From NCBI GenBank assembly GCA_964570625.1, contig CAZMYW010000006.1, positions 420-64,419 on the forward strand: a DNA stretch of 64,000 nucleotides, written 5' to 3'. The notes below the pieces were generated by a model. The model was given only the letters and a program-made list of their open reading frames with translations. It was not told where the DNA came from and did no database searches. The translations under genes and the position numbers were made by a program. Positions 11,965-63,302 of this stretch are shown piece after piece (position 1 is the first letter of the stretch; each line of letters starts with the position of its first letter). This DNA comes from an uncultured Nitrospirota bacterium (GTDB lineage Bacteria > Nitrospirota > Nitrospiria > 2-01-FULL-66-17).

Positions 11965-12001
11965 AGATGTTTTTCCCCAGAGCGCACGCTTCGGCGCTCT
12001 G

Positions 12002-12126
12002 GGAGCCTGTTCAGGAGCGCGCCAGATGCCAGGCGCCGCGAGCACCCGCACCGCAGCGTACTGGGTCGTACGTGAGGAGCGGATGCGCAGCGGCAACGCC
12101 GCAGATGGCCGCTCATGGACAGGCTC
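12002..12126 (+). repeat. Copy 1 of a ~125-bp structured intergenic repeat
   Basis: Near-identical to 19566-19689. It has imperfect terminal inverted repeats (GAGCCTGTTCAGGAGCG ... CGCTCATGGACAGGCTC) and internal hairpins (CGTAC-TGGGT-CGTACG, GCGGC-AAC-GCCGC). It abuts the lon stop codon. Confidence 0.7.
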
Positions 12127-14594
12127 TACGCGTTGATGGGAAGGGAGGAGCGGTTTTGGCGCGGCGATGGCCGCGCCCGCGGCTTCACCATGCGAAACCC
12201 CCGCAACGCAACGGGCAACACGTCGTCCATCGTTTCGGCGAACACAAGCTGTAACCCCTGTTTGACGTGTTTGGGCACGTCTTCGAGGTCTTTCTCGTTG
12301 CGCTTGGGGATGATGACGGTTTTCATGCCCGCCCGCTTGGCAGCCAACAACTTTTCCTTCAGACCCCCGATCGGCAACACCCGTCCGCGCAGCGTCACCT
12401 CACCCGTCATGGCGACCTCATGCCGCACCGGGGTATCGGTGAACACCGAGGCCAAGGCCGTGGCCATCGTAATGCCCGCCGAAGGACCGTCCTTGGGAGT
12501 CGCGCCTGCCGGCACGTGGATGTGGACGTCGAGTTTGCCGAACACGTCGGGCTTGACGCCGATCTCGTGTTGCCGGGACTTGATGTAGCTGAGCGCGGCC
12601 TGCGCCGACTCTTTCATCACGTCGCCCAGGTGGCCGGTCAGGGTGAGCACACCCTTGCCCTTCATGGTGGTGGCCTCGATGTAGATGATGTCGCCGCCTG
12701 ATTCGGTCCACGCCAGGCCGGTGGCCACGCCAAGCTCGTCGTGCTCCTGCTCCGCCTCCGGCACGTGTTTGGGGATGCCGAGATAGGCTTGGAGGTTCTT
12801 GGGCGTGATGATGTACTGCTTGACCTTCCCTTCGGCGATCTTCCGGGCCACCTTGCGGAACACGTTGGCGATCTCGCGCTCCAGGTTCCGCACGCCCGCC
12901 TCGCGCGTGTACTGCGTGATGATTATCCGCAGCGCGGACTCGGTGAGTTCCGCGTGTTTCTCCGAAATGCCGTGCTCCTTGAGCTGCCGCGGAATCAGAT
13001 AGTTCTTGGCGATCCCGACCTTCTCCTCCTCGGTGTACCCCGAGATATCGATCACTTCCATCCGGTCGCGCAGCGGGCCCGGGATAGGATCGAGCAGATT
13101 GGCGGTGGTGATGAACATGACGTTCGAGAGGTCGAACGGCACGCCCAGGTAATGATCGGTGAACGCGTGGTTCTGCTCCGGATCCAGCACTTCCAGCAGG
13201 GCCGCCGCGGGATCGCCGCGGAAGTCCATACCGATCTTGTCCACCTCATCCAGCATGAACACCGGGTTATTGGACCCGCCCTGCTTAATGCCCAGGACGA
13301 TCCGGCCCGGCAACGAACCCACGTACGTACGCCGGTGGCCCCGGATCTCGGCCTCGTCGCGTACCCCGCCCAGCGACATCCGCACGAACTCCCGTCCCAG
13401 CGCCCGGGCGATCGACTTGCCCAACGACGTCTTGCCCACGCCGGGCGGGCCGAGGAAACACAGGATCGGCCCTTTCATCTTTTCTTTTAACTTGCGCACC
13501 GCCAGGAACTCGAGGATCCGCTCCTTGACCTTCTCCAGATCGTAGTGGTCGTCGTTGAGCACCTTTTCCGCGGCCGGGATGTCCAGATTGTCCTTGGTCG
13601 TTTTGCTCCACGGGATCTCGACCATCCATTCCAAATACGTGCGGATCGTGGCGGCCTCGGCCGAGTCCGGGTGCATTTTCTCCAGGCGCTTGAGCTGCTT
13701 GTCGGACTCTTTGAACACCTTCTCGGGCATCTTGGACTGTTTGATGCGCTTGCGAAACTCGTTGATCTCCTCAGCGCGTTCGTCGACGTCGCCCAGTTCC
13801 TTTTGGATGGCTTTGAGCTGCTCGCGCAGGAAATACTCCCGCTGGCTGCGGTCCATCTCCCCCTTGGCTTCGGCCTGGATTTTCTGCTGCATCGACAGCA
13901 GTTCGATCTCCTTGTTCAGGATCTCGTTGACGCGCCGCAGCCGCGCGACCGGGTCCAGGAGTTCCAGGACCTCTTGCGCCAGGTCCACCTTCAGCCCCAG
14001 ATTGGAGGCGATCATGTCGGCCAGGCGGCCGGGTTCATCGAGATTTTCGATGACCACCATGATCTCGGGCAACATCAGCTTGCCGAACCCGATGATCTTT
14101 TCGAGCTGCTCCTTGACGGTTCGCATCAGCGCCTCGATCTCGAGGCTGACCTCCGGCGCCGCGGCATCGGGCAGTTTTTCGGTCTGGACCACGTAGAACG
14201 GCGTCGTCTGGACGTACTCGAGCACGCGCACGCGAGCCATCGCCTGCACCAAAATCTTGATGCGGCCGTCGGGCAACTTGAGCATTCGCATGATCATGCC
14301 CACGGTGCCGACCGAATACAGGTCCTTCGCTTGGGGGTTCTCCACGTCCAGTGCGCGCTGGGCCACCAACAGCACCAAGCGGTTGCCGGCGAGCGCCTCG
14401 TCGATGGCCTTGATCGACATCTCGCGGCCCACGAACAGCGGCAGCACCATGTGCGGAAACACCACCAGATCCCGCACCGGGAGCATCGGCAACTGGCTGG
14501 GGATTTCGACCTGCTGGGTGTCTTGCTCGACCGTCTCTGTCACGCGTTCGGTTCCCCCTTTCCTGGTTTCACCCTTCTTGCACCGGAATTTCAA
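12126..14594 (-). CDS. lon: ATP-dependent Lon protease
   Basis: Lon N-domain ([10 protein letters not shown]), AAA+ Walker A ([15 protein letters not shown]) and the C-terminal Ser-Lys protease domain ([13 protein letters not shown]) are present. The start could instead be Met at 14486 (MLPVRD), which would remove the overlap with hsp20. Confidence 0.9.
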
Positions 14595-42374: not shown

Positions 42375-43748
42375 ATGACTGAGATCGTTCAGACCATCCT
42401 CATTTTTGTCGGACTTTCCTTCTTGGGATACGCCCCTCTGCGCGGGTTCGTATCCACCGAGGTTCGAAGCGGCGAGCGCCTTCTCTTGGGCCTGTCGCTT
42501 GCGCTGGGGCTGACCCCGCTGGTTCTCTTCTTTTTGTTGCTGGCTGGCGGCCATCTTGGCCTGATTCCCGTCTGGCTGTTCGTCACCGGAGCCAGCCTTG
42601 GATTCGTTCTGTGGGTCGTTGACGCGTACCGCTCGGGGTGGAGCCGCCCGGAGTTGCCTGCGTCTCGACCGCTCACGCTCCGATCGACCGTTCAGATGGC
42701 GCTCGCTGGAATCATCACTGCCCTCCTGATCGAAAAACTGATCTTCGTGGCCGTTCAGGGATTTGCGTTTCCGACCTACTTTTGGGATGCCGTCGCCAAT
42801 TGGAATTATCGAGCGAAGATCTTACACGCCGTCGGACGTCTCGACTTGGATCCACACAGTGACGCCTTCCTGGGAGGAGGGTTGCCGCACTATCCGTTGG
42901 GGCCGTCCATCTTCCGGGCCTGGACGACCACGCTCATCGGGAGGTGGAGCGAGCCGGCCGTTGCCGCGCACTCGATCGCGACCTACGTCCTTCTGTTCGG
43001 GATCATCTGGATCCGGCTGTCAAAAAGGATCGGACGATGGTCCGGTTTCGTCTTTGCGTATCTCGCGATCAGCATTCCGCTGATGGCTTATCATGCCTAC
43101 GCGGGTTACGCCGATCTGTTGATCTCGTTCTTCTTTACTGCCTGCCTGATCTATGGCTACCAGTACCTCACCACCCGGGACACACTTTCGGGTCTGGTAT
43201 CGGCTCTGTTCCTCGCCAGCGCTCTGTTCACCAAGAACGAGGGGCTCGTCCTGATCCTCCCCGCGCTCGGGGTCACCGTCCTCGTGGTGTTCTGGTCGGG
43301 ACGAATGACCCTGAGATCTTCGGCCGCCTATTTCGGCATCGCGATCGGCTTACTCGTGCCTTGGATCGTGCTCAAGGCGTACTTTGGACTTCCCTATGCT
43401 CCGACGGACGCGAACGCGAGAATTGCGTTCCACATCGAGGGGCTGCAACAACTCTTCGGCGTCGTGTTCCTGCAAGGAAGTTTTAATCTGTTTGGCCTGT
43501 TCTTCGTGCTCACGATCCTGCTGTTTTCGTCGCTCTGGTGGAAAACGGACGTCGGATTTCTGGCCCTCCCAAACTTTCTCTTTATCGGAGCCGTCCTGGC
43601 AGTCTTCCTGTTCACCGGCAATTACGAATTTCTTGACAACCAAATGACGATCAACCGAACGCTGATGATCGCGATGCCGAGCTACATCTACTTAGTCGGC
43701 GTCTCGTTCGGCAGGAAATGGCCCGGTGCGAGTGGAACAACGGATTGA
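42375..43748 (+). CDS. Polytopic integral membrane protein, putative GT-C-type glycosyltransferase
   Basis: About 12 predicted TM helices. It is convergent with a polyprenol-phosphate GT2. Confidence 0.45.
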   Translation: MTEIVQTILIFVGLSFLGYAPLRGFVSTEVRSGERLLLGLSLALGLTPLVLFFLLLAGGHLGLIPVWLFVTGASLGFVLWVVDAYRSGWSRPELPASRPLTLRSTVQMALAGIITALLIEKLIFVAVQGFAFPTYFWDAVANWNYRAKILHAVGRLDLDPHSDAFLGGGLPHYPLGPSIFRAWTTTLIGRWSEPAVAAHSIATYVLLFGIIWIRLSKRIGRWSGFVFAYLAISIPLMAYHAYAGYADLLISFFFTACLIYGYQYLTTRDTLSGLVSALFLASALFTKNEGLVLILPALGVTVLVVFWSGRMTLRSSAAYFGIAIGLLVPWIVLKAYFGLPYAPTDANARIAFHIEGLQQLFGVVFLQGSFNLFGLFFVLTILLFSSLWWKTDVGFLALPNFLFIGAVLAVFLFTGNYEFLDNQMTINRTLMIAMPSYIYLVGVSFGRKWPGASGTTD

Positions 43749-43801
43749 CCCCACTCCCCCGCCACATCCGATCGCCGTAGGATCGGGGAGCAACAACCAG
43801 G

Positions 43802-44488
43802 TCAGTGCCGTTTTAGCCGGTACTTGAGGACGCACCACAGCGCCCAAACTCCGTCTTTCCACCCGATCTTTTTGCCCTCGGTGTAATCTCTCCCGCTGTA
43901 AGAAATGCCGATTTCATAAATTCGCCAACGTTTCCGCGCAACCTTTGCCGTAAACTCGGGCTCAAACCCGAACCGATCCTGCTCGAGCCTTAATCCGCGC
44001 AACACGTCGGTACGGAACATTTTGTAACACGTTTCCATATCGGTCAGATTGAGATTTGTGAGCATATTGGACAGTAGCGTCAAGAATTTGTTGCCCACGG
44101 AGTGCCAAAACAACAACACTCGATGCTCGTCGGCCGTCAGAAAACGAGACCCGTAGACCACGTCGGCGCGGCCGTCCAAGATTGGCTTGATGAGGCGATG
44201 ATATTCCTCGGGATTATACTCGGTATCCGCGTCCTGAATAACCACCACCTCTCCGGTAACCTTCTCAAATCCTGTCCGGAGCGCCGCGCCCTTCCCTCTA
44301 TTTTTGTCATGATAGAAGACCTGAACGTCCACGTCTGATATCGCTCGCAGGAGCTCTCTCGTTCCATCGGTCGAACCGTCATCGACGACAATGATCTCCT
44401 TCTCGATGGCGACTTTCTGCACGCGCCTGATGATTGCGACAACGGTCGGGGCTTCGTTAAAAACCGGTATGACAACCGATAGTTTCAT
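43802..44488 (-). CDS. GT2 polyprenol-phosphate sugar transferase (DPM1/ArnC-like)
   Basis: [16 protein letters not shown]...[10 protein letters not shown]...[14 protein letters not shown] match the family. Confidence 0.8.
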
Positions 44489-49240: not shown

Positions 49241-51391
49241 ATGACGCGCCGCCGACCCGCACGAACACCTTCGGCAACCGACACGTCACCACCCACCAGT
49301 AGAGCACCCACTGCCGGGAATGAGACGCCGAGTACTCTCTGGTTTTGGCACGGGTTGGCCATCGTGCTGGTGGTTTCCCTGGTTGCCGTCGCCTATGCCA
49401 ACAGCCTCCACGGGGAGTTTCACCTCGACGATCAGAACATCACCACCGACTCCGCACTGCACCTGCGCGACCTCAGCGTCGATTCGCTGGCCAACGCGGT
49501 GTGGCACCGGCGGCCGGTAGCGAGCCTGACCTTTGCCCTGAACTACTACTGGGGCGAACACGAGGTCTTCGGTTACCACCTGCTGAATGTCGCGATCCAC
49601 GCAGCGACTGCGCTGGGCCTTTACGCGTTTCTGTTGCTGTTGTTCCGGCTCCCGCGTGCGCGAGAGGCCGCCGACGAACTCCGCGCGCCGATGGCGTTGG
49701 GCGCCACCCTGCTGTGGGCCGCGCATCCGGTGCAGACTCAAGCCGTCACCTACATCGTGCAGCGCATGACAAGCCTCGCCGCATTGTTCTACGTGCTGGC
49801 GTTGATCACCTATCTCAAAGGCCGGGAAACCGGGGGGCGCGGCCGCATCATCTGGTGGCTTGGAGCGGCGGGGTGCGGCGCGCTGGCCCTCGGCAGCAAA
49901 GAGATGGCTGCCACGCTGCCGTTTGCCCTGCTCTTGATCGAGTGGTGCTTCTTCGACACGGATCGTCGAACCGTGCGGCGAGGGATGATCGCCACGGGAA
50001 TGTTGTTGCTTCCCATCGTGGTGGTGGCGATCTTCACGGTACAGGACCGGACCGGCGCGTCGTTCTGGGGGCAGTTGACCACCCACCGATCGACCATCCA
50101 GCTCTTTACCACGACCGAACACTTCCTGACCGAGGGGCGTGTGGTCGTCCACTACCTCACGCTGCTCGCGTGGCCCCACCCGTCGCGACTCACGTTTGAC
50201 TACGACTTCTCCATCTCTCGCGGCTGGTTCGACCCGCCGACCACGGCGCTGTCGTGGCTCGTGATCCTCGGCACGATTGCCGTCGGGTTCGCGCTCCGTC
50301 GCCGCGCCCCGCTCGCGGCGTTCGCGGTGTTGTGGTTTTTCTTGCAGCTCGCCATTGAATCGAGCTTCATTCCGCTCGATCTGGTCTTCGAGCACCGGCT
50401 CTACCTCCCGTCCATGGGGCTCGCACTCCTCGCCGTCCTGGCGGGTGCACGGGCGTGGCAACGGTGGCGTGGCAGTCGCTTCCGTTATCTCCCGGTTGTG
50501 ACCGCCGCCGCGATTGTCATCGTGTGGACCGGCTGGACGATCCAGCGGAACCGGGTCTGGGCGACGGAGTTCTCCCTCTGGACCGACACCGTGGCCAAGG
50601 CTCCGTCGAATCCCCGCGCTATGTCCAGCCTGGCGGTCGCGTATCGGGACCGCGGCGACCTCGACCGCGCGGTGACGTTGCTACAAGAGGCCACCCGCGC
50701 CAATCCAGGATTCCACCACGGTTTCGGACAACTGGGAGTCGCCCTGCTCGACCGGGGCGACCTCGAGCCCGCACTCGAGGCGTTTCAGCGCGCCCACGCG
50801 CTCGATCCGGCCGATGCACAGGACACCTACCATCTCGGCGTGGTGTATCAGAAGCTGGGGAGACCCGGCGACGCTGAACGCGCGTACCAGGACACCATTC
50901 GCCTCAAACCGGATGATGCGGAGGCACACAACAACCTCGGCGCGGTGTACCAGGAGAAAAACCAGTGGGATGACGCGCTCGCCGAGTATCAAACCGCCGC
51001 CCGGCTGGACCCGACGTTGCCGCAGGCCCACTATGGGATAGCCCGCGTCTTGGAACGTCAGGGAAGACCGGATGAGGCGATTCGCGCCTACCGAGCCGCG
51101 ATCGAACAGAATCCCCGGCACGTGGACGCGCACATCGCGCTCGCCGGGCTCTACCTGACCCGAGGGGAAAAAGGGGCCGCGGTGGAGACTTTCGAGGCCG
51201 CGTTACGGTTAGCCCCCGATGTGCCCGAAGGGCACTATCAGGTCGCGCGACTGCTGGATGACCTCGACCGCAAGGCCGAGGCCTTACCGCATTACCGTCG
51301 ATTTTTGGAGTTGGCCACGGCGGCCCAGGCCAATGCCCGCGCCTGGGTGGAGGCGCGCATTCGGACCCTGGGGCCTGCTGCGTCGCGTTAG
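49241..51391 (+). CDS. TMTC-like protein: N-terminal GT-C membrane domain (DUF1736-type) plus C-terminal TPR repeats (putative protein O-mannosyltransferase)
   Basis: N-terminal motif NSLHGEFHLDDQ...ASLTFALNYYWGE is followed by about 10 TM helices and then at least 8 TPR repeats. Confidence 0.7.
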   Translation: MTRRRPARTPSATDTSPPTSRAPTAGNETPSTLWFWHGLAIVLVVSLVAVAYANSLHGEFHLDDQNITTDSALHLRDLSVDSLANAVWHRRPVASLTFALNYYWGEHEVFGYHLLNVAIHAATALGLYAFLLLLFRLPRAREAADELRAPMALGATLLWAAHPVQTQAVTYIVQRMTSLAALFYVLALITYLKGRETGGRGRIIWWLGAAGCGALALGSKEMAATLPFALLLIEWCFFDTDRRTVRRGMIATGMLLLPIVVVAIFTVQDRTGASFWGQLTTHRSTIQLFTTTEHFLTEGRVVVHYLTLLAWPHPSRLTFDYDFSISRGWFDPPTTALSWLVILGTIAVGFALRRRAPLAAFAVLWFFLQLAIESSFIPLDLVFEHRLYLPSMGLALLAVLAGARAWQRWRGSRFRYLPVVTAAAIVIVWTGWTIQRNRVWATEFSLWTDTVAKAPSNPRAMSSLAVAYRDRGDLDRAVTLLQEATRANPGFHHGFGQLGVALLDRGDLEPALEAFQRAHALDPADAQDTYHLGVVYQKLGRPGDAERAYQDTIRLKPDDAEAHNNLGAVYQEKNQWDDALAEYQTAARLDPTLPQAHYGIARVLERQGRPDEAIRAYRAAIEQNPRHVDAHIALAGLYLTRGEKGAAVETFEAALRLAPDVPEGHYQVARLLDDLDRKAEALPHYRRFLELATAAQANARAWVEARIRTLGPAASR

Positions 51392-51428: not shown

Positions 51429-52702
51429 TTAGGAGCACACCGCGCCAAACACGCGGACGCAATTCCGCCCGGCGTGTTTGGCTTCGTATAGGGCTTGATC
51501 GGCGCGATGAATGAACTCTTCCGGCGTGGGGGCGCGCGGTTCGTCGCGGCCTAAAGTGTGGACCCCGAAGCTGCACGTCGCTACGGCCTCGTCCGGAAGC
51601 AATCGTTCCTTTTCGACCTCGCCCCGAATCCGTTCAGCCATGGCCACGGCTTCCTCTTCGCCGGTTTGCGCCATCAAAATCACGAACTCCTCGCCCCCGA
51701 GCCGCGTCACCGTGTCATACGCCCGCACGTATCGGGACAGCACCTGGGCCAGCCCGCGGAGGACGCGGCGCGGTCCAATTCGCCGACCATGATCTCGTTG
51801 AGATAGCGTCGGTTGTACAGGCTGGTCAAGGGATCTCGGATCGAGAGGGTCTTGATCTGTTCAAACGCCTGTTGTTTTTGAATCGCCAGCACGGCCTGGG
51901 TGGCGAGCGGTTTCAACATGCTCAGGATGGACGGATTGAACGTGCGTGGCCTGAAATCGTCGACGTAGAGAATCCCCACCGGGCCGCGCTCCGAGATCAG
52001 CGGCAGGGCGATCAGGGAACGGATCCCCTCCTTGATCAACACGGGGTTCTGAAACGCCGGATAGTCCGCGATATTGGGGACGACCACTGGTTCGGTCTGC
52101 TGCAGGATGTGTTCGGTCAGCCCGCCCGAGCGGACGGGGTACACCGCGTGATCCCGATAAAAACCCGACGAGAATCCCTTCGCCGCGACCAGGAAGAGCT
52201 CGTTCTTCTCATGATTGACAATGGATAGCGATCCGGAGGGCATCTCGGTGATGCGGGTTCCGCCCGTGACAATCGCTTCGAAGATTTGCTCCGGAGTCTG
52301 CGACTGCGACAACATGAGGTTGATGTCAGCCAACACTTGATGTTCCCGCAGGTACTCTCGCACCTGGATTTCTCGGTCCTCCAGGGTCTGGATGACGTTC
52401 CAGAGGAGATGGGAAACTTGTCCGGAGACGAGATCGAACGTGCGGCCGGAGAGCGCGGTCAGGCGAGCCTGCACCGCGGGATTGCCGGTCAGGTCGAACA
52501 CGAGGTCCACCTCACCGGTCGGCAATTCTTCGAGCGGCTTGTCGACGAAAACCGGCACCTTGGCCTGCCGCGCCAGGACCAGACCGGGAGCATTCGGGTC
52601 GCGATCATGGACTCCGACCACCGTGACCCAATCGAATTGGAGGAGCCGGCTCAACACGGCCTGGCCTCCTTTGCCGGCTCCAATGATCAACACCCTGACC
52701 AT
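51429..52702 (-). pseudogene. GAF-GGDEF diguanylate cyclase gene disrupted by an internal deletion and frameshift within the GGDEF domain
   Basis: ORF 52702-51707 encodes a Rossmann-like domain, a GAF domain and the start of GGDEF (DPLTSLYNRRYLNE...ELDRAASS), then terminates. ORF 51743-51429 in another frame encodes the end of the domain (VLSRYVRAYDTVTRLGGEEF...). The ~30 residues normally carrying DxDxFKxxND are absent. Confidence 0.6.
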
Positions 52703-53924: not shown

Positions 53925-54989
53925 ATGCGGAGACCTACCACATCCCTGAAACTGTTGCTGACGGCTCTCAGCCTCGTGATGGGACTGAGCCAGGTCTCGT
54001 GCACCGGGCGCGGACCGCTTCAAGTCGGTGGCTGGGTTACCTACTGGGACTTTCAGCCGGGGCTGGAGTTGCTGCACCGCCACCCGGGCGCTTTGAGCGA
54101 CGTGTTCTTTTTTATCGCCCATCTCGACACAGACGGCCGTCCAGTGCTTGTCGATCCCACGCTCCCCGTCGACCAAGCAGTCGCCCGCGTCAAGGCCAAT
54201 GGCGGACGCCCATGGCTGACTATCGTAAACGACATCAGGTCGGACCGAGGCGTCGCGCTGAAGGATCCACAGGTTGTCCACGACGTCCTTGGCAGCACGG
54301 ACCGGCGGGCCGCCCATCGCGCTGCCATCATCGAGCTGGTGTCGCAGTATGGGATGTCTGGCGTGGATATCGACTACGAGAATCTCTGGGCCCGTGATCG
54401 AACATTGTTCACGACGTTCATCCGCGAATTAGCGGCCGACGCGCGCCGACGGGGCGTCTTGCTGTCCGTGACGGTTCAGCCCAAACTCGGCGAGCGCGGG
54501 TCCGACGGCCCGGGTGCGGCGGACTGGGGGGCCCTTTGCGCGACCGTCGATCGCCTCCAAATCATGCTGTACAACCTCCACAGCCGAGCCACCGGTCCCG
54601 GCCCCATGGCCACCGGCCGATGGATCAGGGGCGTGTTGAGCTACGCGAACTCGCAGTGCGATCCCGAGCGCATCGTGCCGGCGTTAAAAATCAGCGGGAT
54701 GCGTTGGGCGGACGACACGGTCGAAGGGGTGCAGTATGTTCAGGCGATGGCCTTGGTCCAAGAGCACAGCGCGTTGATCTCACGGGACGCGGACGATCAG
54801 GTCCCACATTTTTCCTATCAGGCGGACGGCCGGTCCCACACCGTGTACTACGAGGACGCCGTCAGCCTGCGGGAGAAATTGGCCCTCATCCGGTCGCTCG
54901 GTTATCGGTCCGTGGCGCTGTGGAGTCTGGGGCGGCAGGATCCCGCATTGTTCCAGCCGCCGGCGTCCGGCGAGGCCGGCGATCGTTAG
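53925..54989 (+). CDS. Glycoside hydrolase family 18 protein (chitinase-like), secreted
   Basis: GH18 catalytic motif GVDIDYE is present, with a signal peptide. It is convergent with the PNAG-like operon. Confidence 0.7.
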   Translation: MRRPTTSLKLLLTALSLVMGLSQVSCTGRGPLQVGGWVTYWDFQPGLELLHRHPGALSDVFFFIAHLDTDGRPVLVDPTLPVDQAVARVKANGGRPWLTIVNDIRSDRGVALKDPQVVHDVLGSTDRRAAHRAAIIELVSQYGMSGVDIDYENLWARDRTLFTTFIRELAADARRRGVLLSVTVQPKLGERGSDGPGAADWGALCATVDRLQIMLYNLHSRATGPGPMATGRWIRGVLSYANSQCDPERIVPALKISGMRWADDTVEGVQYVQAMALVQEHSALISRDADDQVPHFSYQADGRSHTVYYEDAVSLREKLALIRSLGYRSVALWSLGRQDPALFQPPASGEAGDR

Positions 54990-57900
54990 AATCGCAGGCT
55001 CACGGAGCCATCGAGCAGCCAACTCTGGTATCCCGGTGAGCGAGAGTAGTCCCATCCCAGCCGAGACTGAATTCGCTCGGTCCACGCCTGGACGGCTTCA
55101 ACGGCCGTGTCGCTCACCAGGCGGTTGCCGCGCAGGGACTCATCTGCCCAGCCCGCCCCAGCCTCGCCCGACAGTTCCCACCCCGAGGCCCATCGCCGCC
55201 GGTAGGCGACGATCCCACGCCCCACGGTCAGGTCTTCGGGTGTGTAGTACCGATTGGACTGCACGCGGGTGTCGCTGCGAGTAATCGCCAGACCCAGCCG
55301 CCACTCGGGCCACGGCGAGAGGACGCGCCGAACCGCGGCGCGGAGATCGAGGCGCACGTTTCCGTCGTCGTAGAACCGTTGCGAGCCGAACACGGAAGCA
55401 TCCCACTCCGGGGCGGGGCGCACCAGATACGACGCGGCGTACCCTCGGCTCTGCAGCCCGATCTCGTGCGCGCGGACCGTATCCACGTCCTCGGACGCCC
55501 ACTGCAGTCGCAATTCATGGACGTCCGACTCGTACACACCCAGAAGCCACACGTTGACGCTGTTCGCACTCTGTTCGATAAACCGGTCACGCACGTGCAC
55601 GCGCAGGCTCAGTCGATTCGTGGCCTGCCACTCGACACCCGCGGTCACCTCGCGGCCCGAAAGATCCGGCAGGCCCTCCTCGGTGAAGCGAACCACGCCG
55701 GCTTCGGTCCAGAGCGTCACGGGACGGGTCAACGGATAACGCAACTGTACCGCGTCCCACCAGTTGGTACGGCCGTTGGAGTCCCGGAACATCCCGAGGC
55801 GCTCCGTCACGCGGGGCCGGTTTTCCCACAGAATACGCGTCATCAGATCGCGGCTTTCGCTGGATCGTTCTCCATAGAGCATGGCGGTCTGGAGGTGATG
55901 TTGGGCCTCGCGAACCAGCCCTTGATGAAACGCCACGCTGGCGAGCTGGTACGCTCTCTCTCCGGCCAGCAGTGGGGTCTGTGCGTCGAGGCTTCGGAAA
56001 GCGGCTCGCGATTGCTCGTACCGCCCGCTCCAGGCCCACGACTTGCCGAGCTGCATCTGAGCGATATGGCGCGGATGGTGGGTGGCCAGGTGCTTGAGCA
56101 GTTTCTCGCCGTTCCAGGAGCGAGGGATGTTGAACCGGCGCAACATCCCCGACGCCGACGAATCCACCTCGTTGTACCCGCTCTGGTCCTGCACGAACCC
56201 GTAACGGAAATAGCGAAACAGCAACCGCTCGTTGAGGTCCGCGGCGTCCGGCTCATTGCCCGCGTTCTCTTGACCGGCCTCGGAGAACGGAAAGGCGTAG
56301 CCGACCACGCGCAGGCCCGCGACGTGATCCTTGAGCTGGCTGACCGTGTCTTGATAGTCCTGTTCCAACCGGCGCGCGTACTCGTCCCGGGTCTCGAGCC
56401 GCTCCTGTCCCTCCAGCCACAGCCGGTTGACCAGAAACCCGCCCATCTGTTCAGTCTCGTCGATCGGAATCAGATCGTGGGCGTGATGGCCGTGTCCCTG
56501 GAGATCCCAGCGGCCGGTCTTGGCGTAGCGGCGGACCAGGTCCCAGTCCGCGAAGAACGGATGGTCGTCCAAAATCCTGGCGGTGGGTACGAACATCGTG
56601 GCTTTCATACCGTACTTGGCCAGGACCGGATCGCCGAGCTGAAACGAATCGATGCGGGCGTCGTCAAAGGTGATGAGGATCGGCTGCCGGGGAAACGGCT
56701 GTCGCCCTCCCATCATCTCGACCAACTCACGAAACGTAATCGCGGTGTAGCCCGCGTCGCGCAGCGCCCTGAGTTGGGACTCAAACAGGGCGACGGGCAG
56801 GTTCGCGCTGCGGGGATGCTCGCCCAGCCCGTGGTACAGCAGGATGGGAACGTAGTGCGCCGTGGGCGACGCCACGCGGGTGAACAACGCGCGCGCGTCG
56901 TCGCCCCGTCGCTGGGCAAGCAGAATGCGTGCCCGCTGTAACTGCACCTCGTAATCTTTGAAAAAGGTCGCGCGATTGCGCTCAAGCAGTTCGAGCGCCT
57001 CCCGCGGGCGGTCGGCCTCGATCAAGGTGTTGAGGAGGCCGATGAAGACCCGTCGATTGCGTGGGTATCGGGCCAAGAGGGCGGCGTACTCGCGGTAGGC
57101 CTCGTCGTACCGTTGGCCAAGACGTTGACTGTCCGCCGCGCTGATCAGAATCTCCAGGTGGTCGGGGTGTTTCTGCTTCGCCCGCTCGAGCGTGGCCTCG
57201 CTGTCCGCGATCATCCCTCGCTCGCGGTACAGCGTCGCCAGCTCGGTCCAGAACGCGGGTCGCTCGGGATAGGATTGGACCGCGAGTTCGTACCAGCGCG
57301 CGGACTCTCCCGTGTTGCCCTGAATCAGCGCGTCCTCGATCAAGAACCGCACCAAGGCTTCGTCGGGACCCTCGTTCGCAATCGCTTCTTTGGCCGCGCT
57401 GAGGGCGGCGTCGTACTCGCCCAGGCTGTACCGCGATCGCAGCCAGTAATACCGCGCCCGGGGTGACCGGGAACCGAGCGTCAGCACCCTGCGCCATTGT
57501 GCTTCACCGGCGCGATAATCGTGGTATTGCATAAGCAGTTCGCCCCAGAAAAACTGGACACCGAGGTCCTGGGGATACGACGCGGCCAAGCCGCGGGCGT
57601 AGCGTTTGGCCCGTTCGAACTGCCCGTCCCAGAACAACGCTTTCGCCAGTTTGAGCTGTTCGCCCGGCTGATCCGGAGCCAGGCGCAGACTGGTTTGGAT
57701 GGTTTGAATCGCCGCGGGGTATTCCCGATGGGCCAGGTGGAGCTGGGTCAAGAGATTGTGGGCCTCCGCGCGACGAGGATAGAGCTCGGCGTATCGGGTC
57801 CAGATCTCCTCGCACTGCGCCCACCGAGCGGCGCGCCAGTAGGCCCAGCCCAGGTCCCGCAGCACGTCGGCCGACTCCGGGTCGTAGCCCAACGCCCGCT

Positions 57901-58942
57901 GATAGCGCTCGATGGCGTCGTCGAGTCGATCGGCTTGATACGCCGCGGCGCCCTGGAACGCGTAGATCCAGCCGAGCGCGCGCCTGATCTGCGCGCCGGA
58001 CCCGGCGGTCTTGATTCGCTGCTCGAACCAGGCCGCGCCCTGCCGGGAACGGTCATGGCGGAGGAAGAGGTTCGCGACCCGCAGCGACCAATCCGTCTCG
58101 GCGGTGGACACTTCGAAAACCCGGTCCAACCACCCCAACGCTTGATCATCGCGCCCATCCTGGAACGCGAGATCGGCCAGGCGAAAGGCGATCTGGGGGA
58201 GGCGCGGTCCCGCGTCCCAGGCTTTTCGGTACCAGGTCCTGGCGCTGGAGGCGTCCCCGATCTCCCGCGACGCGTCGGCCAAATGGCGGTAGAGCTGCTC
58301 GGCATCGGGTTGAAGGGCCACCGCCTGCTTCCACGCGCTGATGGCTTGTCGCGTCTTCCCCTGTTTGCGCGTGGCCCATCCCAGATCGGCCAACAACTCC
58401 GCGTCGAGCGGATCCGTCTCGAGCTGTTTCAGATAGGAGAGCTCCGCGGCGTGGTACTCGCGAGCCGCCTGGTCTCGGTGTCCCAAAACTTCATGGATCC
58501 TGGCGATCCGAAACAGGATCTGCGGTTGGTCGGGAACCGCGAGCAGACTGTCTCGGTATCGTGCCAGCGCCTGGTCCCAGGCCCGCCGGTCCGCGAAGAT
58601 CGCCCCGATTTCGTTGATGACCTCCACCGTGTCTGGCTCGATCTTGAGCACGGTCTCCCAGATGCCGATCGCCTTGTCGTCCTGGTCCAGCCGGCGATGG
58701 GCCCATCCGAGGTTTTCCCAGGCTTTGAGCAACCCCGGATCGAGTTGCGTCGCTTCTCGAAGCGCACCCACCGCCTCTTCAAACTGTCCGCTTCGATACA
58801 GTTCGGCTCCGCGGTCCAGGGCCTCCTGCCCCGGCGACGCGCTCCAAGCCGGCGCGCCGAGTTGGAGCGCCGACCACGCCATCAACACGAGCACCCAGCC
58901 GGTACGCCCGGACACACGGCGGCGGGGATCAGCGGCTCGCAT
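54986..58942 (-). CDS. Fusion protein: N-terminal TPR array, CE4 polysaccharide deacetylase (PgaB-like) and C-terminal outer-membrane beta-barrel (PgaA-like porin)
   Basis: A signal peptide follows Met 58942. At least 12 TPR repeats are present. CE4 motifs are ILITFDDARIDS and HGHHAHD. The C-terminal ~450 aa show beta-strand periodicity and end ...SVSLRF. The start overlaps the upstream gene by 14 nt. Confidence 0.7.
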   Translation of the reverse strand: MRAADPRRRVSGRTGWVLVLMAWSALQLGAPAWSASPGQEALDRGAELYRSGQFEEAVGALREATQLDPGLLKAWENLGWAHRRLDQDDKAIGIWETVLKIEPDTVEVINEIGAIFADRRAWDQALARYRDSLLAVPDQPQILFRIARIHEVLGHRDQAAREYHAAELSYLKQLETDPLDAELLADLGWATRKQGKTRQAISAWKQAVALQPDAEQLYRHLADASREIGDASSARTWYRKAWDAGPRLPQIAFRLADLAFQDGRDDQALGWLDRVFEVSTAETDWSLRVANLFLRHDRSRQGAAWFEQRIKTAGSGAQIRRALGWIYAFQGAAAYQADRLDDAIERYQRALGYDPESADVLRDLGWAYWRAARWAQCEEIWTRYAELYPRRAEAHNLLTQLHLAHREYPAAIQTIQTSLRLAPDQPGEQLKLAKALFWDGQFERAKRYARGLAASYPQDLGVQFFWGELLMQYHDYRAGEAQWRRVLTLGSRSPRARYYWLRSRYSLGEYDAALSAAKEAIANEGPDEALVRFLIEDALIQGNTGESARWYELAVQSYPERPAFWTELATLYRERGMIADSEATLERAKQKHPDHLEILISAADSQRLGQRYDEAYREYAALLARYPRNRRVFIGLLNTLIEADRPREALELLERNRATFFKDYEVQLQRARILLAQRRGDDARALFTRVASPTAHYVPILLYHGLGEHPRSANLPVALFESQLRALRDAGYTAITFRELVEMMGGRQPFPRQPILITFDDARIDSFQLGDPVLAKYGMKATMFVPTARILDDHPFFADWDLVRRYAKTGRWDLQGHGHHAHDLIPIDETEQMGGFLVNRLWLEGQERLETRDEYARRLEQDYQDTVSQLKDHVAGLRVVGYAFPFSEAGQENAGNEPDAADLNERLLFRYFRYGFVQDQSGYNEVDSSASGMLRRFNIPRSWNGEKLLKHLATHHPRHIAQMQLGKSWAWSGRYEQSRAAFRSLDAQTPLLAGERAYQLASVAFHQGLVREAQHHLQTAMLYGERSSESRDLMTRILWENRPRVTERLGMFRDSNGRTNWWDAVQLRYPLTRPVTLWTEAGVVRFTEEGLPDLSGREVTAGVEWQATNRLSLRVHVRDRFIEQSANSVNVWLLGVYESDVHELRLQWASEDVDTVRAHEIGLQSRGYAASYLVRPAPEWDASVFGSQRFYDDGNVRLDLRAAVRRVLSPWPEWRLGLAITRSDTRVQSNRYYTPEDLTVGRGIVAYRRRWASGWELSGEAGAGWADESLRGNRLVSDTAVEAVQAWTERIQSRLGWDYSRSPGYQSWLLDGSVSLRF

Positions 58943-60860
58943 AGACCGGATGTGAGGAGGACAACGCGGGGTTCTCGCCGGTCGCCAACAGGAATCGGCG
59001 TCCCTGTCCACGGAGACGTCGCTCCACCTGAGCCACCGCCGCTTCGAATCCCCGTTGATCAGAAGGAGACAGACCAGCCGGATCGACCCGGAGCCCGCCC
59101 CACCCTTCACCCTGCACCCGGGCGACCACATCGGCGGCCCACCCGGCCGGCCTCCGGGGCCCCTCACCCGACGAGCCCACCGGCTCGGCCTCGTCCCTCG
59201 GCAGGAGACGAATGGTGGGCACCAACTCCCACCCGTAACGATGGGAGAGGATCGAGAACAGCTCCCGATCGAAGCCGACCTCGTGCAGGTCGTCTCCGGC
59301 GACCACCGCTGCCAGAGGAGAGACTGCCGCAATGGAGCGCGCGTCGCGGATCAGGGCCTGCACCTCCGCCTGCGTGGGCCGCGCGCTCACAACGCGGACG
59401 TCGAAGGGATACCGGGACAGAGTCAAACGAGCCAATCGGACCTGCGCCACCGGCTCGGTTCGCCAACCCACCACGCCGACGTTTCCCCGCCACGCGCCGG
59501 GCAGGTACACCGGACGGTCGGCCAGAGGGCGCCCGTCCCACTCCGCCCACACGCCTGAACCCCGTTTGACCAATGTGAGATGGTGCCATGCGTGCGGTTC
59601 GATGCCACCCGGGAATGTGGCGAGCGTCTCGCTCACGGTCCCCCACTCAAGCCGCTGGAGGTAGACCGCCCGATCGTGGCCGCCCCAACGCCACGCCTCG
59701 CCGGGACGCGTCGTCGACTCTTGAACGATCCACACTTCGGTCCCGTCGGTCCGGACATCGGCTTCGAGGACCCAGTCGCTGGTCCACTGGCTCCCGGGCA
59801 GCCACACGTCGACTCGCGGGGTACCCGTCATGATCAGCTCCTCGTTTTCCACGCGGGCCAGACCGGCTCCGGACGCCCACGCGGAGAAACCGACCCCGTC
59901 GGGGGACTTGGCCGGGGGATCGCTCAGGGCCGCGTGGACGCGTCGCATCAAGAGGTCACGGGACCAGGTTGGATCGACTCGGAGCCGTTTGAGGCGATGC
60001 GGATCGGACTCCCGGTCATTGACTCCGAACCGGTCGTCGACGAACCCGAGCGAGTACCCGGCGGTCATCGCGTCGTGATTGACCTGATAGACGTCGCGCC
60101 CGCCGGCTGCGCCCGAGAAGCCGATCCGCGACGCGCACGCAAGCACTTGGTAAGCCCGCAGGTGGGATTCGATCACCTGTTTACTCTCCTCGTAGTCCCG
60201 GCGCACGCGCGCCGTGAACTCCTCCCACGTCTCCACGCGTCCTGCCTCGGCGAGCCATTTTCGATCGGCCAGAAACGACCCCGCGGCGCCTCGATCATCG
60301 ATCAGGATCGGATCGTGACTGAGATGACCCTGCGCGCCGATCTCCCACACCCCGCTGTCCACCATGCGCTGGGTGCGATCCCAATAGATGAAAGCAGGGT
60401 CGCGGCGCACCTGGCGATTGCTCACCAGGAACATCACGGCCCGCCACCCCATGTTGCGAAGGACGGGATCCGCCGCGGCGTACGTATCCAGGTAGCCGAA
60501 GTCGAACGTCAGGAGGATGGGCTTGGACGGGAGTGGCTGCCCCCGGTGATAGAAGGCGGCCAGTTCGCGTAACGTGATCGGCTGAAACCCTTCACGACGG
60601 AGGCTTTCCAGGTGCTCACGCAGGATGGCTGGGTCGAGATGGCTGTCCGCTCCTCGATCGCTGACGCGGTCGAAAGCCAGCACCACGATCCGTGGATCGG
60701 TGGACCGGGCCGCGGCGGGGTCCGGAGGCGGTACCGCGGCATGGTGCAACCCCCAATAACCGCCGGCGACGGACACTATCGTCGCCACGAACAGGACCAG
60801 CCACGCGCGACGATCCTCTTTGAATGTCCGCGCCGAGTGCGGTGTGGTTTGGTCGGACAC
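58929..60860 (-). CDS. PgaB-like polysaccharide deacetylase (CE4 domain with variant TFDFG motif) plus C-terminal GH-like domain, membrane-anchored
   Basis: N-terminal TM helix is present. The CE4 region has LLTFDFGYLDTY and HGHLSHD. The GTG start lies 3 nt after the stop of the upstream GT2 gene. Confidence 0.65.
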   Translation of the reverse strand: MSDQTTPHSARTFKEDRRAWLVLFVATIVSVAGGYWGLHHAAVPPPDPAAARSTDPRIVVLAFDRVSDRGADSHLDPAILREHLESLRREGFQPITLRELAAFYHRGQPLPSKPILLTFDFGYLDTYAAADPVLRNMGWRAVMFLVSNRQVRRDPAFIYWDRTQRMVDSGVWEIGAQGHLSHDPILIDDRGAAGSFLADRKWLAEAGRVETWEEFTARVRRDYEESKQVIESHLRAYQVLACASRIGFSGAAGGRDVYQVNHDAMTAGYSLGFVDDRFGVNDRESDPHRLKRLRVDPTWSRDLLMRRVHAALSDPPAKSPDGVGFSAWASGAGLARVENEELIMTGTPRVDVWLPGSQWTSDWVLEADVRTDGTEVWIVQESTTRPGEAWRWGGHDRAVYLQRLEWGTVSETLATFPGGIEPHAWHHLTLVKRGSGVWAEWDGRPLADRPVYLPGAWRGNVGVVGWRTEPVAQVRLARLTLSRYPFDVRVVSARPTQAEVQALIRDARSIAAVSPLAAVVAGDDLHEVGFDRELFSILSHRYGWELVPTIRLLPRDEAEPVGSSGEGPRRPAGWAADVVARVQGEGWGGLRVDPAGLSPSDQRGFEAAVAQVERRLRGQGRRFLLATGENPALSSSHPVYASR

Positions 60861-60863
60861 GGC

Positions 60864-62729
60864 TCAGCGGGTTCCCCAGTGGTTCCTGCGGACCGTACAC
60901 ATCGCGTAGTAGGTTTGCCACACGAGGATCAGCATGTAGAACGCGCTGAAGAGGATGCCGTAGACCCACAGGCCGTTTCGGTATCGCGCCAGATAACACA
61001 GGCCGTACAAGGTAGCCATCAGGATCGATCCATAGATGTAGATGAGGGACAGGCTCCCGTACCCCAGAAGGGGCAATACCAGGGCGTTGAACACGATCAG
61101 CGGAGAGACGATGGGAAACGTGACCCCGAGGTAAAAGAAGAAGGCGGCGAACGGGTGTCGTCGCCAGATGAACAGGCTGGCCAGGAGGCTCTCGCGGATC
61201 CAGGATTTCTTCCACCGAAGCTGCTGTCGGAAGAATTTCATGTAGGTTTCAGGCACGATGGTGGTGCAGACCGCTTCGGAATGATAGATCACGCGGTGGC
61301 GCCGCAGCATGAAATTGGTCAGACTGCGATCATCGCCGAAGGTCGCCGGCGTGCCGAGAAACGTTTGATGGAGCCACGGGTCGAGCACCTCCAGCACGTA
61401 GCGCCGGCGGTATGCCGCGAGACAGCCGGAACAACACGAGACGGTGGAAAACAAGGACTCGGCGGCCTTGATGACCCGAAACGCGATGAAATAGCGGACC
61501 TCCTGCATTTTGGTCAGGAGGTTCTTGCGGGCGTTGGCCACGTTGGCGTGACCGCAGACCGCCCCGACCGCGGGATCCCCGAACCCCTGCGCCATCTTGC
61601 GGATGGCGTCCCGCCGGACGAAGCTGTCAGAATCGATGTAGACGAGGATCTCTCCGCTCGCTGTTTGGGCTCCAGCCGCCATGCCGTGGCGCTTTCCGCG
61701 GTTCTTTTCAAAGTGGATGACCTTCAATCCCGGGTGGCGGTCCCGCGCGCGTTCCATCTCTTTCAGCGTGGTATCGGTGGAGCCGTCGTCCACCGCGATG
61801 ATTTCGAGGCGGTCGGCGGGATAGTAGGACTGGGCGATACAGTCGATCGTCCGCCCGATCGAATCCTCTTCGTTCTTACAAACGATGATCGCGCTGACCG
61901 ATGGCAGGTACCCGGCGTCCGGAGGCGGCCGATAGAAGGACGCGAGCACGAAGCGGGACAGGATATAGAAGGAAATCATCACGCTGCAGGTATTGACCAG
62001 GGGGTGGTACCAGAAGTAGTAGAGGTTGAAGCTCTTGAGATAGGCCACGTTGGCGCAGGCCGCGATGAACAGTCCCAGGGCGAGCCAGGGGATCCACCAC
62101 TCCAGCAGATTGAGACCCCACGACTTGCGATCGACCGTGAACGCGAGACCGGAAAAAAAACCATCGCGGTCTCTGGCCGCCTCGTCCGGGGCCGCTTCAC
62201 TCACGACCCGCCCCCAGATCCACCGATTCGTGGGAAGGTTGGCTGGAACCTGACAGCGCTGAGCCGCGGTCGGCTCTACTCTGAGATGAACCCATTCTCC
62301 GATGTCGAGGGGCCGGGACGAGTGGAGACAGCCCCCGCGGACGTTCCAGTCGGTCAGCACCGTGGTTCCACCCCTCCGAAGGCCGAATCGGTGTATTCGG
62401 GTATACCGCGCGGGTAGGGGCATCTTCGACCGCGGGGTTACGCGTTGCGCCGAAAACCCGTGGGGTGCCGGAGCGCCCCCTGGGGTAGGGCGACTCGATC
62501 CTACAGTGGACGTTGCCGAGATCATGGCCAACCTTTCAGATGGTGGGAGAGTCCGATGCGTGATTACAGGTCCTGCTGGATCGAAGCAACACCCGTGCCC
62601 GGCGCTTTGCGGTGGCCGACCCGGCCACAACTGCTCAAAACGCACAGAACACGCGGTTCCGAAGTGTGTCTCTGGTCCAGTGGTCGAGATTCGTAATGTC
62701 GAGATCGTAACCAGGAAAGCGCCCGCCAA
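60864..62729 (-). CDS. PilZ-domain-fused processive GT2 synthase (PgaC/HAS/BcsA-like, QQLRW)
   Basis: N-terminal RYTRIHR...(13 aa)...DWNVRGG parallels the PilZ RxxxR/DxSxxG motifs. GT2 motifs are present (AVDDGSTDT, YIDSDS, GDDRSLT, QQLRWKKSW), with TM helices at both ends. The alternative start is ATG 62423. Confidence 0.75.
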   Translation of the reverse strand: MAGAFLVTISTLRISTTGPETHFGTACSVRFEQLWPGRPPQSAGHGCCFDPAGPVITHRTLPPSERLAMISATSTVGSSRPTPGGAPAPHGFSAQRVTPRSKMPLPARYTRIHRFGLRRGGTTVLTDWNVRGGCLHSSRPLDIGEWVHLRVEPTAAQRCQVPANLPTNRWIWGRVVSEAAPDEAARDRDGFFSGLAFTVDRKSWGLNLLEWWIPWLALGLFIAACANVAYLKSFNLYYFWYHPLVNTCSVMISFYILSRFVLASFYRPPPDAGYLPSVSAIIVCKNEEDSIGRTIDCIAQSYYPADRLEIIAVDDGSTDTTLKEMERARDRHPGLKVIHFEKNRGKRHGMAAGAQTASGEILVYIDSDSFVRRDAIRKMAQGFGDPAVGAVCGHANVANARKNLLTKMQEVRYFIAFRVIKAAESLFSTVSCCSGCLAAYRRRYVLEVLDPWLHQTFLGTPATFGDDRSLTNFMLRRHRVIYHSEAVCTTIVPETYMKFFRQQLRWKKSWIRESLLASLFIWRRHPFAAFFFYLGVTFPIVSPLIVFNALVLPLLGYGSLSLIYIYGSILMATLYGLCYLARYRNGLWVYGILFSAFYMLILVWQTYYAMCTVRRNHWGTR

Positions 62730-63302
62730 AGTTCCGGCAGAGTGACGACCGCCGCGTTACCCACAGAGCCGGTGCCGGGCGTATAAAAAAACTACGGGTC
62801 GCGCCACTCCCCCATGGATGGCGCGACCCACTGCTGGGCCGTGGGGGTGGGCGGACACGGCCAGCGGTCGATAGTCGCAATGTGGCTCGCACACGACGCG
62901 CGAGCCGGCGGGTTATGGTTGCTCGTCCCTCATCACGTCGTTCAAGGTATCAATGTCCCAACATCCACGGCCGGATGCCACGACCCACGCGTGAGCCGTG
63001 GCGGTGGGACGCCCCGGGTAACGTCTCCGCGCGCGGCGCGTGACTGCTGCACTCGTTGATGGCGCGCGCCCTCCGAGTGGCGGCAAACACTATGGAGCAC
63101 GCAGGCGCAGTCGCCACGATCCGGGGCGAGAGCACCCGACATTCCGGGCAGGGCGGCGCGGATACTGAACCATCGGCTTGAAGTCGGAAAACACGCCGCA
63201 TGCGATGCCGTCGGTCGCAGCGCCTTGTCGAACGGCGTCGGTGATTCGTACAATGGGGCGTCGCCGTGACGCGGGGCTTACCCTGTTTTAGAAAGGACGC
63301 GT

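Follow-up and report, generated by a model that had tools for sequence, protein, structure and literature searches.

How should one read a secretion locus of which one half resembles a known exopolysaccharide machine and the other half does not? The question is raised by four genes in a 64,000-nucleotide stretch of DNA, hereafter the window, from an uncultured Nitrospirota bacterium (GTDB lineage Nitrospiria; 2-01-FULL-66-17; GenBank assembly GCA_964570625.1, contig CAZMYW010000006.1, positions 420 to 64,419 of the forward strand). They encode a processive family 2 glycosyltransferase (GT2, the synthase), a membrane-anchored protein with a family 4 carbohydrate esterase (CE4) fold (gene 2), a 1318-residue protein combining tetratricopeptide repeats (TPRs), a CE4 domain and a beta-barrel (gene 3), and a family 18 glycoside hydrolase (GH18). 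A preliminary description, made from the sequence alone, called the cluster an operon resembling that for poly-N-acetylglucosamine (PNAG). This label fits the modification and export half, where the CE4 domain and the barrel match PgaB and PgaA by fold, but not the synthase and hydrolase half: the synthase does not look like a PgaC, no GH153 domain is found in the system's ORFs by Pfam (PF14883), and the hydrolase is a separate GH18 enzyme. All the elements of the general class of synthase-dependent exopolysaccharide (EPS) systems can be recognised by sequence or fold, namely a GT2 with a messenger receptor, a TPR/barrel exporter, a modifying enzyme and a hydrolase. We propose, with moderate confidence, that the four genes form a self-contained system of this class, and that it would make a beta-1,4-linked polymer of N-acetylglucosamine (GlcNAc).

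A four-gene module and its fusion protein

Between positions 53925 and 62729 lie three minus-strand open reading frames (ORFs) and one convergent plus-strand ORF, all confirmed as previously described. The coupling of the three genes is just as tight as claimed: the stop of the GT2 gene and the GTG start of gene 2 meet in TGAgccGTG (60866-60858), and the ATG of gene 3 (58942) and the TGA of gene 2 (58931-58929) give a 14-nt overlap. At the other end, the stops of the convergent GH18 gene (TAG) and of gene 3 (TAA) overlap in TTAG (54986-54989), which leaves no intergenic terminator space between these two genes. One boundary moves. The end of the synthase gene had been placed at 62729, which is simply the first TTG of the open frame; homologs are 536-555 residues long with N-termini of the MISA... 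or MTIT... type, and since these lengths and N-termini match and a GAAAGG lies 8 nt upstream, the start is most likely the ATG at 62525 (553 aa). A Pfam scan recovered all the assigned domains: GT2 (PF00535, Chitin_synth_2), CE4 (PF01522) in genes 2 and 3, TPRs in gene 3 and GH18 in the convergent gene. The motifs QQLRW, TFDFG, TFDDARIDS and HGHHAHD and a C-terminal ...SLRF are each present in the predicted proteins.

Do the four genes belong together? In four distant homolog neighbourhoods, a GT2, a CE4 protein of about 640 residues, a TPR-CE4-barrel protein and a GH18 stand together among unrelated flanking genes. We then scored 80 loci, taken from one genome per species, by tblastn with eight domain queries, and the complete four-gene set was found in about 26 of them, from Nitrospirota (Manganitrophaceae), Acidobacteriota, Gammaproteobacteria, Delta/Desulfobacterales, Nitrospinaceae, Verrucomicrobiia and Eisenbacteria. 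The GH18 gene may lie convergent downstream, co-directional downstream or divergent upstream; its linkage in these loci bears out the earlier suggestion that it goes with the operon. Its GxDxDYE motif is retained in 28 of 29 orthologs. Thus the four genes are one real module, conserved as a syntenic unit across many bacterial phyla.

One complete set sits in a cultured organism, Holophaga foetida DSM 6591 (Acidobacteriota; NZ_KI912268.1, locus coordinates 4369-12912), with a co-directional GH18 gene and canonical PilZ motifs (DDRRSSTR ... DCSRGGA) in its synthase. More distant variants (loci L034-L086) occur in Elusimicrobiota, Methylococcales, Omnitrophota and the Candidate Phyla Radiation (CPR; Saccharibacteria, Paceibacterota). 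There, a GT2 with 45-55% identity adjoins a TPR-CE4 protein whose barrel is often undetectable by tblastn, the C-terminal domains of gene 2 are usually absent, and GH18 appears in some loci only. The CPR carriers have unusual envelopes.

The claim that gene 3 fuses a PgaA-like TPR porin to a PgaB-like deacetylase holds up well. The protein runs from a signal peptide through the TPR region, the CE4 domain and a helical linker to a 16-strand barrel ending in F. An AlphaFold2 model of residues 690-1318, built on a 53-sequence alignment (pLDDT 93.3, pTM 0.83), has six helices between a CE4 domain and 16 antiparallel strands. These strands occupy only about 275 residues (1044-1317) and follow about 100 residues of TPR-like helices, so that the barrel of about 450 residues given in the preliminary description has to be shortened. 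Against Pfam and NCBIfam the barrel region gave a weak Autotransporter match alone (E 0.005), and it was therefore established by structure prediction; one gene-3 homolog carries a recorded PF21197 match, and the curated PgaA model TIGR03939 reaches 59.9 bits, on the TPR part, against a cut-off of 366.65. By Foldseek, the best match of the barrel is PgaA (4Y25; E 2.8e-14, TMt 0.73), with BcsC and PelB next (PelBC 9H80 among the matches). The best matches of the CE4 domain are the PgaB/BpsB/IcaB de-N-acetylases (E 1e-17 to 1e-11), headed by PgaB of A. actinomycetemcomitans (4U10) and E. coli (4F9J/4F9D/3VUS) and by Bordetella BpsB (5BU6), at 1e-17 to 1e-15.

The catalytic residue set of this CE4 domain is complete. 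The domain is of the circularly permuted PgaB/IcaB type, in which the YH motif with the acid His is N-terminal, before TFDD, and YH, TFDD and HGHHAH are invariant or nearly so in 53 sequences. With base Asp, metal Asp, His pair and acid His all present, gene 3 is predicted to carry a catalytically intact PgaB-type de-N-acetylase.

The fusion itself is an established, widespread architecture. About 55 full-length relatives (90% clustering) of 1270-1470 residues have the same TPR and PF01522 content; they come from Nitrospirota (the closest, at 90% identity), Vicinamibacteria and metagenome-assembled genomes of Gamma- and Deltaproteobacteria, and all are named just 'TPR repeat protein'. In an exhaustive HMMER scan of 1.84 billion cluster representatives (50% identity) with the CE4-plus-barrel half, 425 matches were obtained at E<=1e-30, and among the best 150 of these at least 75 proteins of 800 residues or more align in one piece across CE4, linker and C-terminal barrel. 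We considered an assembly fusion as the origin of the 1318-residue ORF and rejected it: the full-length architecture recurs in dozens of independent contigs.

What would such a fusion do? The PgaB deacetylase domain of E. coli is bound and stimulated by those TPRs of PgaA that lie closest to the outer membrane (PMC9384988). In gene 3 the CE4 domain is placed exactly between TPRs and porin, and by analogy the fusion would make this PgaA-PgaB contact covalent; for this reason it supports deacetylation at the outer-membrane-proximal TPRs.

The synthase, the hydrolase and the identity of the polymer

If modification and export look PNAG-like, what polymer is made in the first place? The synthase is a GT2 with the QQLRW motif, as first described, and its motifs are DDGS246, DSDS298, GDDR397, QQLRW434 and a C-terminal WGTR550. 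In NCBIfam, the NodC model aligns over its full length at 190 bits (cut-off 550), whereas the second-best model, PgaC/IcaA (TIGR03937), gives 139.9 bits against a cut-off of 422.3 and is covered only from position 19 to position 307 of its 407. Among solved structures, hyaluronan synthases (HAS; that of Chlorella virus at 2e-35, and Xenopus HAS1) come closest, with the alignment extending through the C-terminal WGTR, and BcsA is only distantly related (E 1e-6, PDB search). Searching annotated plasmids by tblastn gave the same picture: HasA is the best annotated match (179 bits, 96% query coverage), NodC follows at about 150-167 bits and 84-98% coverage, and PgaC reaches 110-131 bits with only 57-69% coverage, ending just past QxxRW. 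Because NodC outscores PgaC, the HAS structures are closest, the alignments reach the C-terminus and WGTR is present, we place the synthase, on sequence grounds, in the HAS/NodC/chitin synthase clade and not with PgaC; it has the D, DxD, G/EDR, QxxRW and WGTR motifs of this clade and homology through the C-terminal membrane domain. By score (190 against 550 bits) it does not qualify as a NodC equivalog.

Could the product then be hyaluronan-like, or another heteropolysaccharide, made by a dual-substrate class I HAS-type GT2 from GlcNAc and, for example, glucuronic acid, with CE4 and GH18 acting on the GlcNAc? The structure matches, the HasA hit and the JGI label of the family, 'hyaluronan synthase', all point this way. 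However, identity to HasA (about 31%) is no higher than to NodC, and none of the loci examined shows a conserved gene for UDP-glucose dehydrogenase, or any other sugar-nucleotide gene, beside the cluster. Moreover, we know of no CE4 de-N-acetylation and no GH18 cleavage of hyaluronan. We regard this as the least likely of the alternatives considered here.

The hydrolase bears on the same question. It scores 71 bits against PF00704 (cut-off 29.6), begins with a signal or lipoprotein-like peptide, and keeps an intact catalytic GVDIDYE with its E at residue 152; with the family match above cut-off and the DxDxE motif in place, it has the features of an active GH18. Its PDB matches are YdhD, 4Q6T, 5JH8 and CFLE. 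GH18 enzymes use substrate-assisted catalysis via the acetamido group of beta-1,4-linked GlcNAc, and the known PNAG hydrolases belong to GH20 and GH153. To our knowledge, no GH18 enzyme cleaves beta-1,6-linked GlcNAc. In characterised systems, the hydrolase or lyase encoded in the locus acts on its own polymer, as do BcsZ, AlgL, PelA and the GH153 hydrolase domain of PgaB (PMC5933820). We propose that the GH18 protein is the cognate periplasmic hydrolase of the module.

Does this leave room for PNAG after all? The locus could be a divergent beta-1,6-GlcNAc system, in which gene 3 replaces PgaA and the PgaB deacetylase while GH18 replaces GH153 or dispersin B. Its modification and export half fits: the barrel is closest to PgaA, the CE4 folds of both gene 2 and gene 3 are closest to PgaB/BpsB/IcaB, YH precedes TFDD as in PgaB and IcaB, the family next-nearest to gene 2 is annotated PgaB, and PgaC_IcaA is the runner-up among the NCBIfam models. 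The synthase argues otherwise, since it falls far below the PgaC cut-off, loses the PgaC alignment past QxxRW, and at its C-terminus and WGTR matches HAS and NodC. Nor does the locus offer a GH153 domain or a PgaD: the abutting and overlapping genes leave no room for a further ORF, and GH18 is the sole other conserved gene (no PgaD profile search was made). Together with the hydrolase family, this makes PNAG an unlikely product, in our judgement.

A chitin/HAS-type synthase linked to an intact GH18 favours instead a partly deacetylated beta-1,4-GlcNAc polymer, chitin- or chitosan-like, as the probable product, an assignment to which we give moderate confidence. Several observations weigh against it. 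The nearest characterised relatives of the GH18 protein (YdhD, YaaH/SleL, CFLE) cleave spore peptidoglycan, not chitin. HasA and NodC lie at about the same distance from the synthase, which stays under every curated cut-off, so that linkage and sugar composition cannot be read off its sequence. In structure, the CE4 domain and porin come nearest to the proteins of the PNAG system, and the order of the CE4 motifs is that of PgaB/IcaB, which would fit a beta-1,6 product. Finally, the barrel is neutral in charge, with 36 acidic and 35 basic residues, which does not favour transport of a polycation.

The PilZ-like domain and the membrane-anchored gene-2 protein

The synthase had also been credited with an N-terminal PilZ domain, a putative receptor for cyclic di-GMP (c-di-GMP). 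For the family this is supported: 20 of 30 diverse homolog N-termini match PF07238 (best E 4e-11), a Paenibacillus homolog among the relatives scores 27.4 bits against the cut-off of 22.5, and a profile of the homolog N-termini finds the PilZ domain of BcsA as its best match in the PDB, weakly (E 0.06) but with the two motifs aligned. Across the family the consensus reads RRxxxR ... xxSxxGA; the c-di-GMP-binding motifs of PilZ domains are RxxxR and [D/N]xSxxG. Of the two motifs originally named, DWNVRGG stands and RYTRIHR does not, because the RxxxR conserved in the 30 homologs aligns with R28-V-T-P-R32 of the window synthase (QRVTPR).

The copy in the window is less clear-cut, and here too some findings count against the c-di-GMP part of our proposal. 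The first Arg of the RR pair is Gln in QRVTPR and the Ser is Asn in DWNVRGG; the N-terminal 143 residues give no PilZ match in Pfam even at E<=10; and some orthologs have no PilZ domain at all (Vicinamibacteria, L003 and L010; also L009). The same QRVTPR/DWNVRGG variants are common to close Nitrospirota relatives, and the PilZ-like domain therefore appears to be under selection. Thus an N-terminal PilZ domain is supported as a feature of the synthase family, at which level the assignment holds, and the window copy may bind c-di-GMP.

Gene 2 had been described as a membrane-anchored CE4 deacetylase with a variant TFDFG motif. The motif, the anchor and the fold are there. The model (pLDDT 88.7) has a transmembrane (TM) helix at 14-38, a PgaB-like CE4 fold at about 55-310 with key catalytic residues missing, a CBM66/lectin-like beta-sandwich at about 330-490 and a small alpha/beta domain at about 495-625. 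The deacetylase activity is another matter: in a 61-sequence alignment of the family, an Asp occupies the place of the catalytic-acid His (AFD instead of YH), the metal-binding Asp of TFDD is F, H, Y, E, Q or G, and whole clades have replaced the His pair (GRIGN) or lost it by a 5-residue deletion while keeping the remaining protein. Gene 2 thus lacks the active CE4 residue set. Could it still be a second active deacetylase, with a non-canonical catalytic set, so that the same machinery deacetylates at both the inner and the outer membrane? The window protein does retain the base Asp of TFD, which is more than 90% conserved in the family, and the H..H pair (QGHLSHD), and its Pfam CE4 match is above cut-off (40.9 bits). 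Against these stand the family-wide losses just listed, and we consider a second active enzyme distinctly unlikely. On residue conservation, namely the loss of the catalytic His and of the metal-binding Asp throughout the family, gene 2 is probably a catalytically dead, membrane-anchored, polymer-binding partner of the synthase with a BcsB-like role.

A cytoplasmic juxtamembrane motif, RTFxxDRxAW (residues 10-40; 60750-60860), precedes the CE4 fold of gene 2. Its F13, D16 and W20 are invariant in 61 sequences, and it is more conserved than the 'enzyme' domain downstream of it. This suggests that it may serve as a docking site on the synthase.

How might the parts work together? We envision that the GT2 builds the chain from UDP-GlcNAc and extrudes it through a membrane channel of its own. 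The activity of the enzyme would be coupled to c-di-GMP by the PilZ-type domain that, as in Alg44, stands just before the first TM helix (TM1). Gene 2, anchored beside the synthase by its juxtamembrane motif and TM helix, would bind and guide the polymer in the periplasm without acting on it as an enzyme. The TPR scaffold of gene 3 would then receive the chain, the built-in CE4 would partly de-N-acetylate it, and the polymer would leave through the 16-strand barrel. Last, GH18 would trim or release the polymer in the periplasm, like BcsZ, PelA or the GH153 domain of PgaB. Gene content, folds, residues, synteny and spread are observed; substrate, linkage, binding of c-di-GMP by the window copy, protein contacts and the order of events are what we infer from them.

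Known systems, surroundings and significance

Characterised synthase-dependent EPS systems are few: cellulose, alginate, PNAG, Pel, mixed-linkage glucan and Nfr. The pgaABCD/hmsHFRS systems of E. coli and Yersinia and bpsABCD of Bordetella share with our module a TPR and 16-strand porin, a PgaB-type permuted CE4 and a hydrolase in the locus; a CE4 working at the outer-membrane-proximal TPRs and c-di-GMP-dependent activity are predicted to be shared as well. They differ in that here the CE4 is covalently inserted between TPRs and porin, a HAS/NodC-like GT2 with an N-terminal PilZ-like domain stands where they have PgaC and PgaD, a separate GH18 stands where they have GH153, and a membrane-anchored pseudo-CE4/lectin protein comes in addition. 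The window proteins are far below all cut-offs of the curated PgaA, PgaB and PgaC models.

Other machines share other parts. Pel also docks a deacetylase-hydrolase on a TPR porin and makes a partly deacetylated, cationic aminosugar polymer; however, it uses a soluble GT4 (PelF), a receptor with a GGDEF I-site (PelD) and an alpha-1,4-GalNAc polymer, and PelA (GH166+CE4) joins hydrolase and deacetylase in one protein, separate from the porin PelB. The cellulose machinery BcsA-BcsB-BcsC-BcsZ has a processive GT2 fused to a PilZ domain, a carbohydrate-binding anchored partner (BcsB, compare gene 2), a TPR/16-strand porin (BcsC) and a periplasmic hydrolase (BcsZ), but its PilZ domain is C-terminal in BcsA, it lacks a deacetylase and its hydrolase is a GH8. 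Class I HAS, NodC and chitin synthases come closest to the synthase in their catalytic and membrane domains and share GDDR, QxxRW and terminal WGTR, yet have neither PilZ nor a dedicated set of TPR-porin, CE4 and GH18 partners. Alg44 resembles the synthase in having an N-terminal cytoplasmic PilZ domain followed directly by a TM helix; it is, however, separate from its synthase Alg8 and carries a periplasmic membrane-fusion-like domain. We also looked at the bacterial chitin synthases acquired horizontally from eukaryotes (PMC5122149) and set them aside as not the same, their gene context being different. No curated NCBIfam model names gene 2, gene 3 or the GH18 protein. Other fusions, BcsZ-BcsC and GT-PgaB, appear in a 2020 census of EPS operons, the TPR-CE4-barrel fusion does not, and our search of the published literature, with subscription journals outside its reach, found no description of the four-gene module.

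The best plasmid match takes the module into a Gram-positive bacterium. Paenibacillus cellulositrophicus KACC 16577 (plasmid NZ_CP045296.1, 261845-269475, with the counterpart of the module at 264669-269475) encodes a canonical CE4 of 492 residues, a PilZ-GT2 of 625, a gene-2 homolog of 589 and a GH18 of 357, and no TPR-porin. The PilZ-GT2 is 43% identical to the window synthase in its catalytic part, the gene-2 homolog scores 99.2% in hhalign, and with GH18 the order is the same; the differences are the missing TPR-porin and the active CE4, which is free-standing and upstream. By analogy, this is a monoderm version of the module, parallel to ica versus pga. In the Paenibacillus locus, 1.3 kb between the first CE4 gene and the GT2 gene is unannotated.

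The features of the module are collected in the table, together with a hairpin in the leader of the synthase gene.

Table 1. Coordinates in the window of the four genes, their domains and the leader hairpin
Feature	Coordinates	Strand	Basis
Synthase gene, 553-aa inner-membrane processive GT2 with N-terminal PilZ-like domain	60864..62525	-	ORF, homolog lengths and N-termini, Pfam, tblastn
PilZ-like domain of synthase, residues ~20-135, predicted cytoplasmic, directly before TM1	62121..62468	-	Homolog alignment, PF07238 in homologs
Gene 2, 643 aa: TM helix, CE4 fold, lectin-like beta-sandwich, alpha/beta domain	58929..60860	-	ORF, Pfam, model
Gene 3, predicted 1318-aa outer-membrane protein	54986..58942	-	ORF, Pfam, homologs, model, fold matches
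Gene-3 TPR region, residues ~40-690	56873..58825	-	Pfam TPR_19 1.7e-42, TPR_16 5e-33
Gene-3 CE4 domain, residues ~696-940	56123..56857	-	Invariant residues, PgaB alignment, Foldseek
Gene-3 TPR-like helical linker, residues ~945-1042	55817..56110	-	Model helices 256-352; weak TPR matches
Gene-3 16-strand beta-barrel, residues 1044-1317	54989..55813	-	Model strands; Foldseek to PgaA 4Y25
GH18 glycoside hydrolase	53925..54989	+	Pfam, PDB matches, linkage, catalytic motif
Hairpin and T7 run in synthase leader	62785..62829	-	Sequence; no Rfam match

The hairpin shares the strand of the operon and precedes the start codon of the synthase by about 260 nt, within a 780-bp divergent intergenic region. 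It has an 11-bp GC-rich stem (GGGTCGCGCCA ... TGGCGCGACCC) and a 12-nt loop, followed by TTTTTTT; a simple terminator scan missed it because of its loop length. It looks terminator- or attenuator-like and may not belong to the system. A promoter/terminator scan did no better than shuffled sequence, and an Rfam search of the 1.1-kb leader and intergenic region for a c-di-GMP riboswitch returned nothing at E<=1.

On the GH18 side, the neighbours at 33.8-53.7 kb are unrelated housekeeping genes that are not syntenic with the cluster in other genomes. The flanks include genes for Usp, DUF4136, a membrane TPR protein, a ferredoxin/metallo-beta-lactamase protein, NifU, a small GT2, a PMT_2-like protein, a methyladenine glycosylase and an SNF2 helicase. 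Some are of glycosylation type (42375-44488 and 49241-51391): a PMT_2-like membrane protein, a GT2 of 228 residues and a 716-residue membrane protein with C-terminal TPRs; these, too, are not syntenic with the cluster elsewhere. Only 1.2 kb from the GH18 gene of this putatively c-di-GMP-controlled system lies a split GAF-GGDEF diguanylate cyclase gene (51429-52702, minus strand), with a GAF ORF at 51707-52702 and the C-terminal part of the GGDEF domain at 51429-51743. In Pfam, its GGDEF match is confined to positions 66-160 of the 161 in the profile. Besides having a frameshift, the gene lacks about 27 codons, those of the DxD...FK...GH region among them; it is probably a pseudogene or an assembly error.

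What would the module mean? It would add another synthase-dependent EPS system to the known ones, with a distinct synthase lineage (HAS/NodC-like with an N-terminal PilZ domain) and a distinct hydrolase family (GH18). Two features of its architecture are new, a predicted active deacetylase within the TPR-porin and a conserved, apparently catalytically dead CE4/lectin partner, and if the chitosan-type reading is right, this fusion and this pseudo-deacetylase co-subunit would bring new design principles to such machines. We suggest, tentatively and at slightly less than even odds, that this is the first bacterial synthase-dependent machine to secrete a chitin/chitosan-type (beta-1,4-GlcNAc/GlcN) exopolysaccharide under c-di-GMP control, widespread in Nitrospirota, Acidobacteriota, Nitrospinota, Verrucomicrobiota and Proteobacteria and with a porin-less form in Firmicutes. 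The cultured carriers, Holophaga foetida DSM 6591 and Paenibacillus cellulositrophicus KACC 16577, make the hypothesis testable. Carriers belong to environmentally important, mostly uncultured phyla, including nitrite and manganese oxidisers of the Nitrospirota, and the module would thus bear on how their flocs and biofilms are built. If the polymer is indeed chitosan-like, these bacteria would be a large, unrecognised source of such matrix polymers in soils, sediments and groundwater, with a bearing on the origin of environmental aminosugar polymers.

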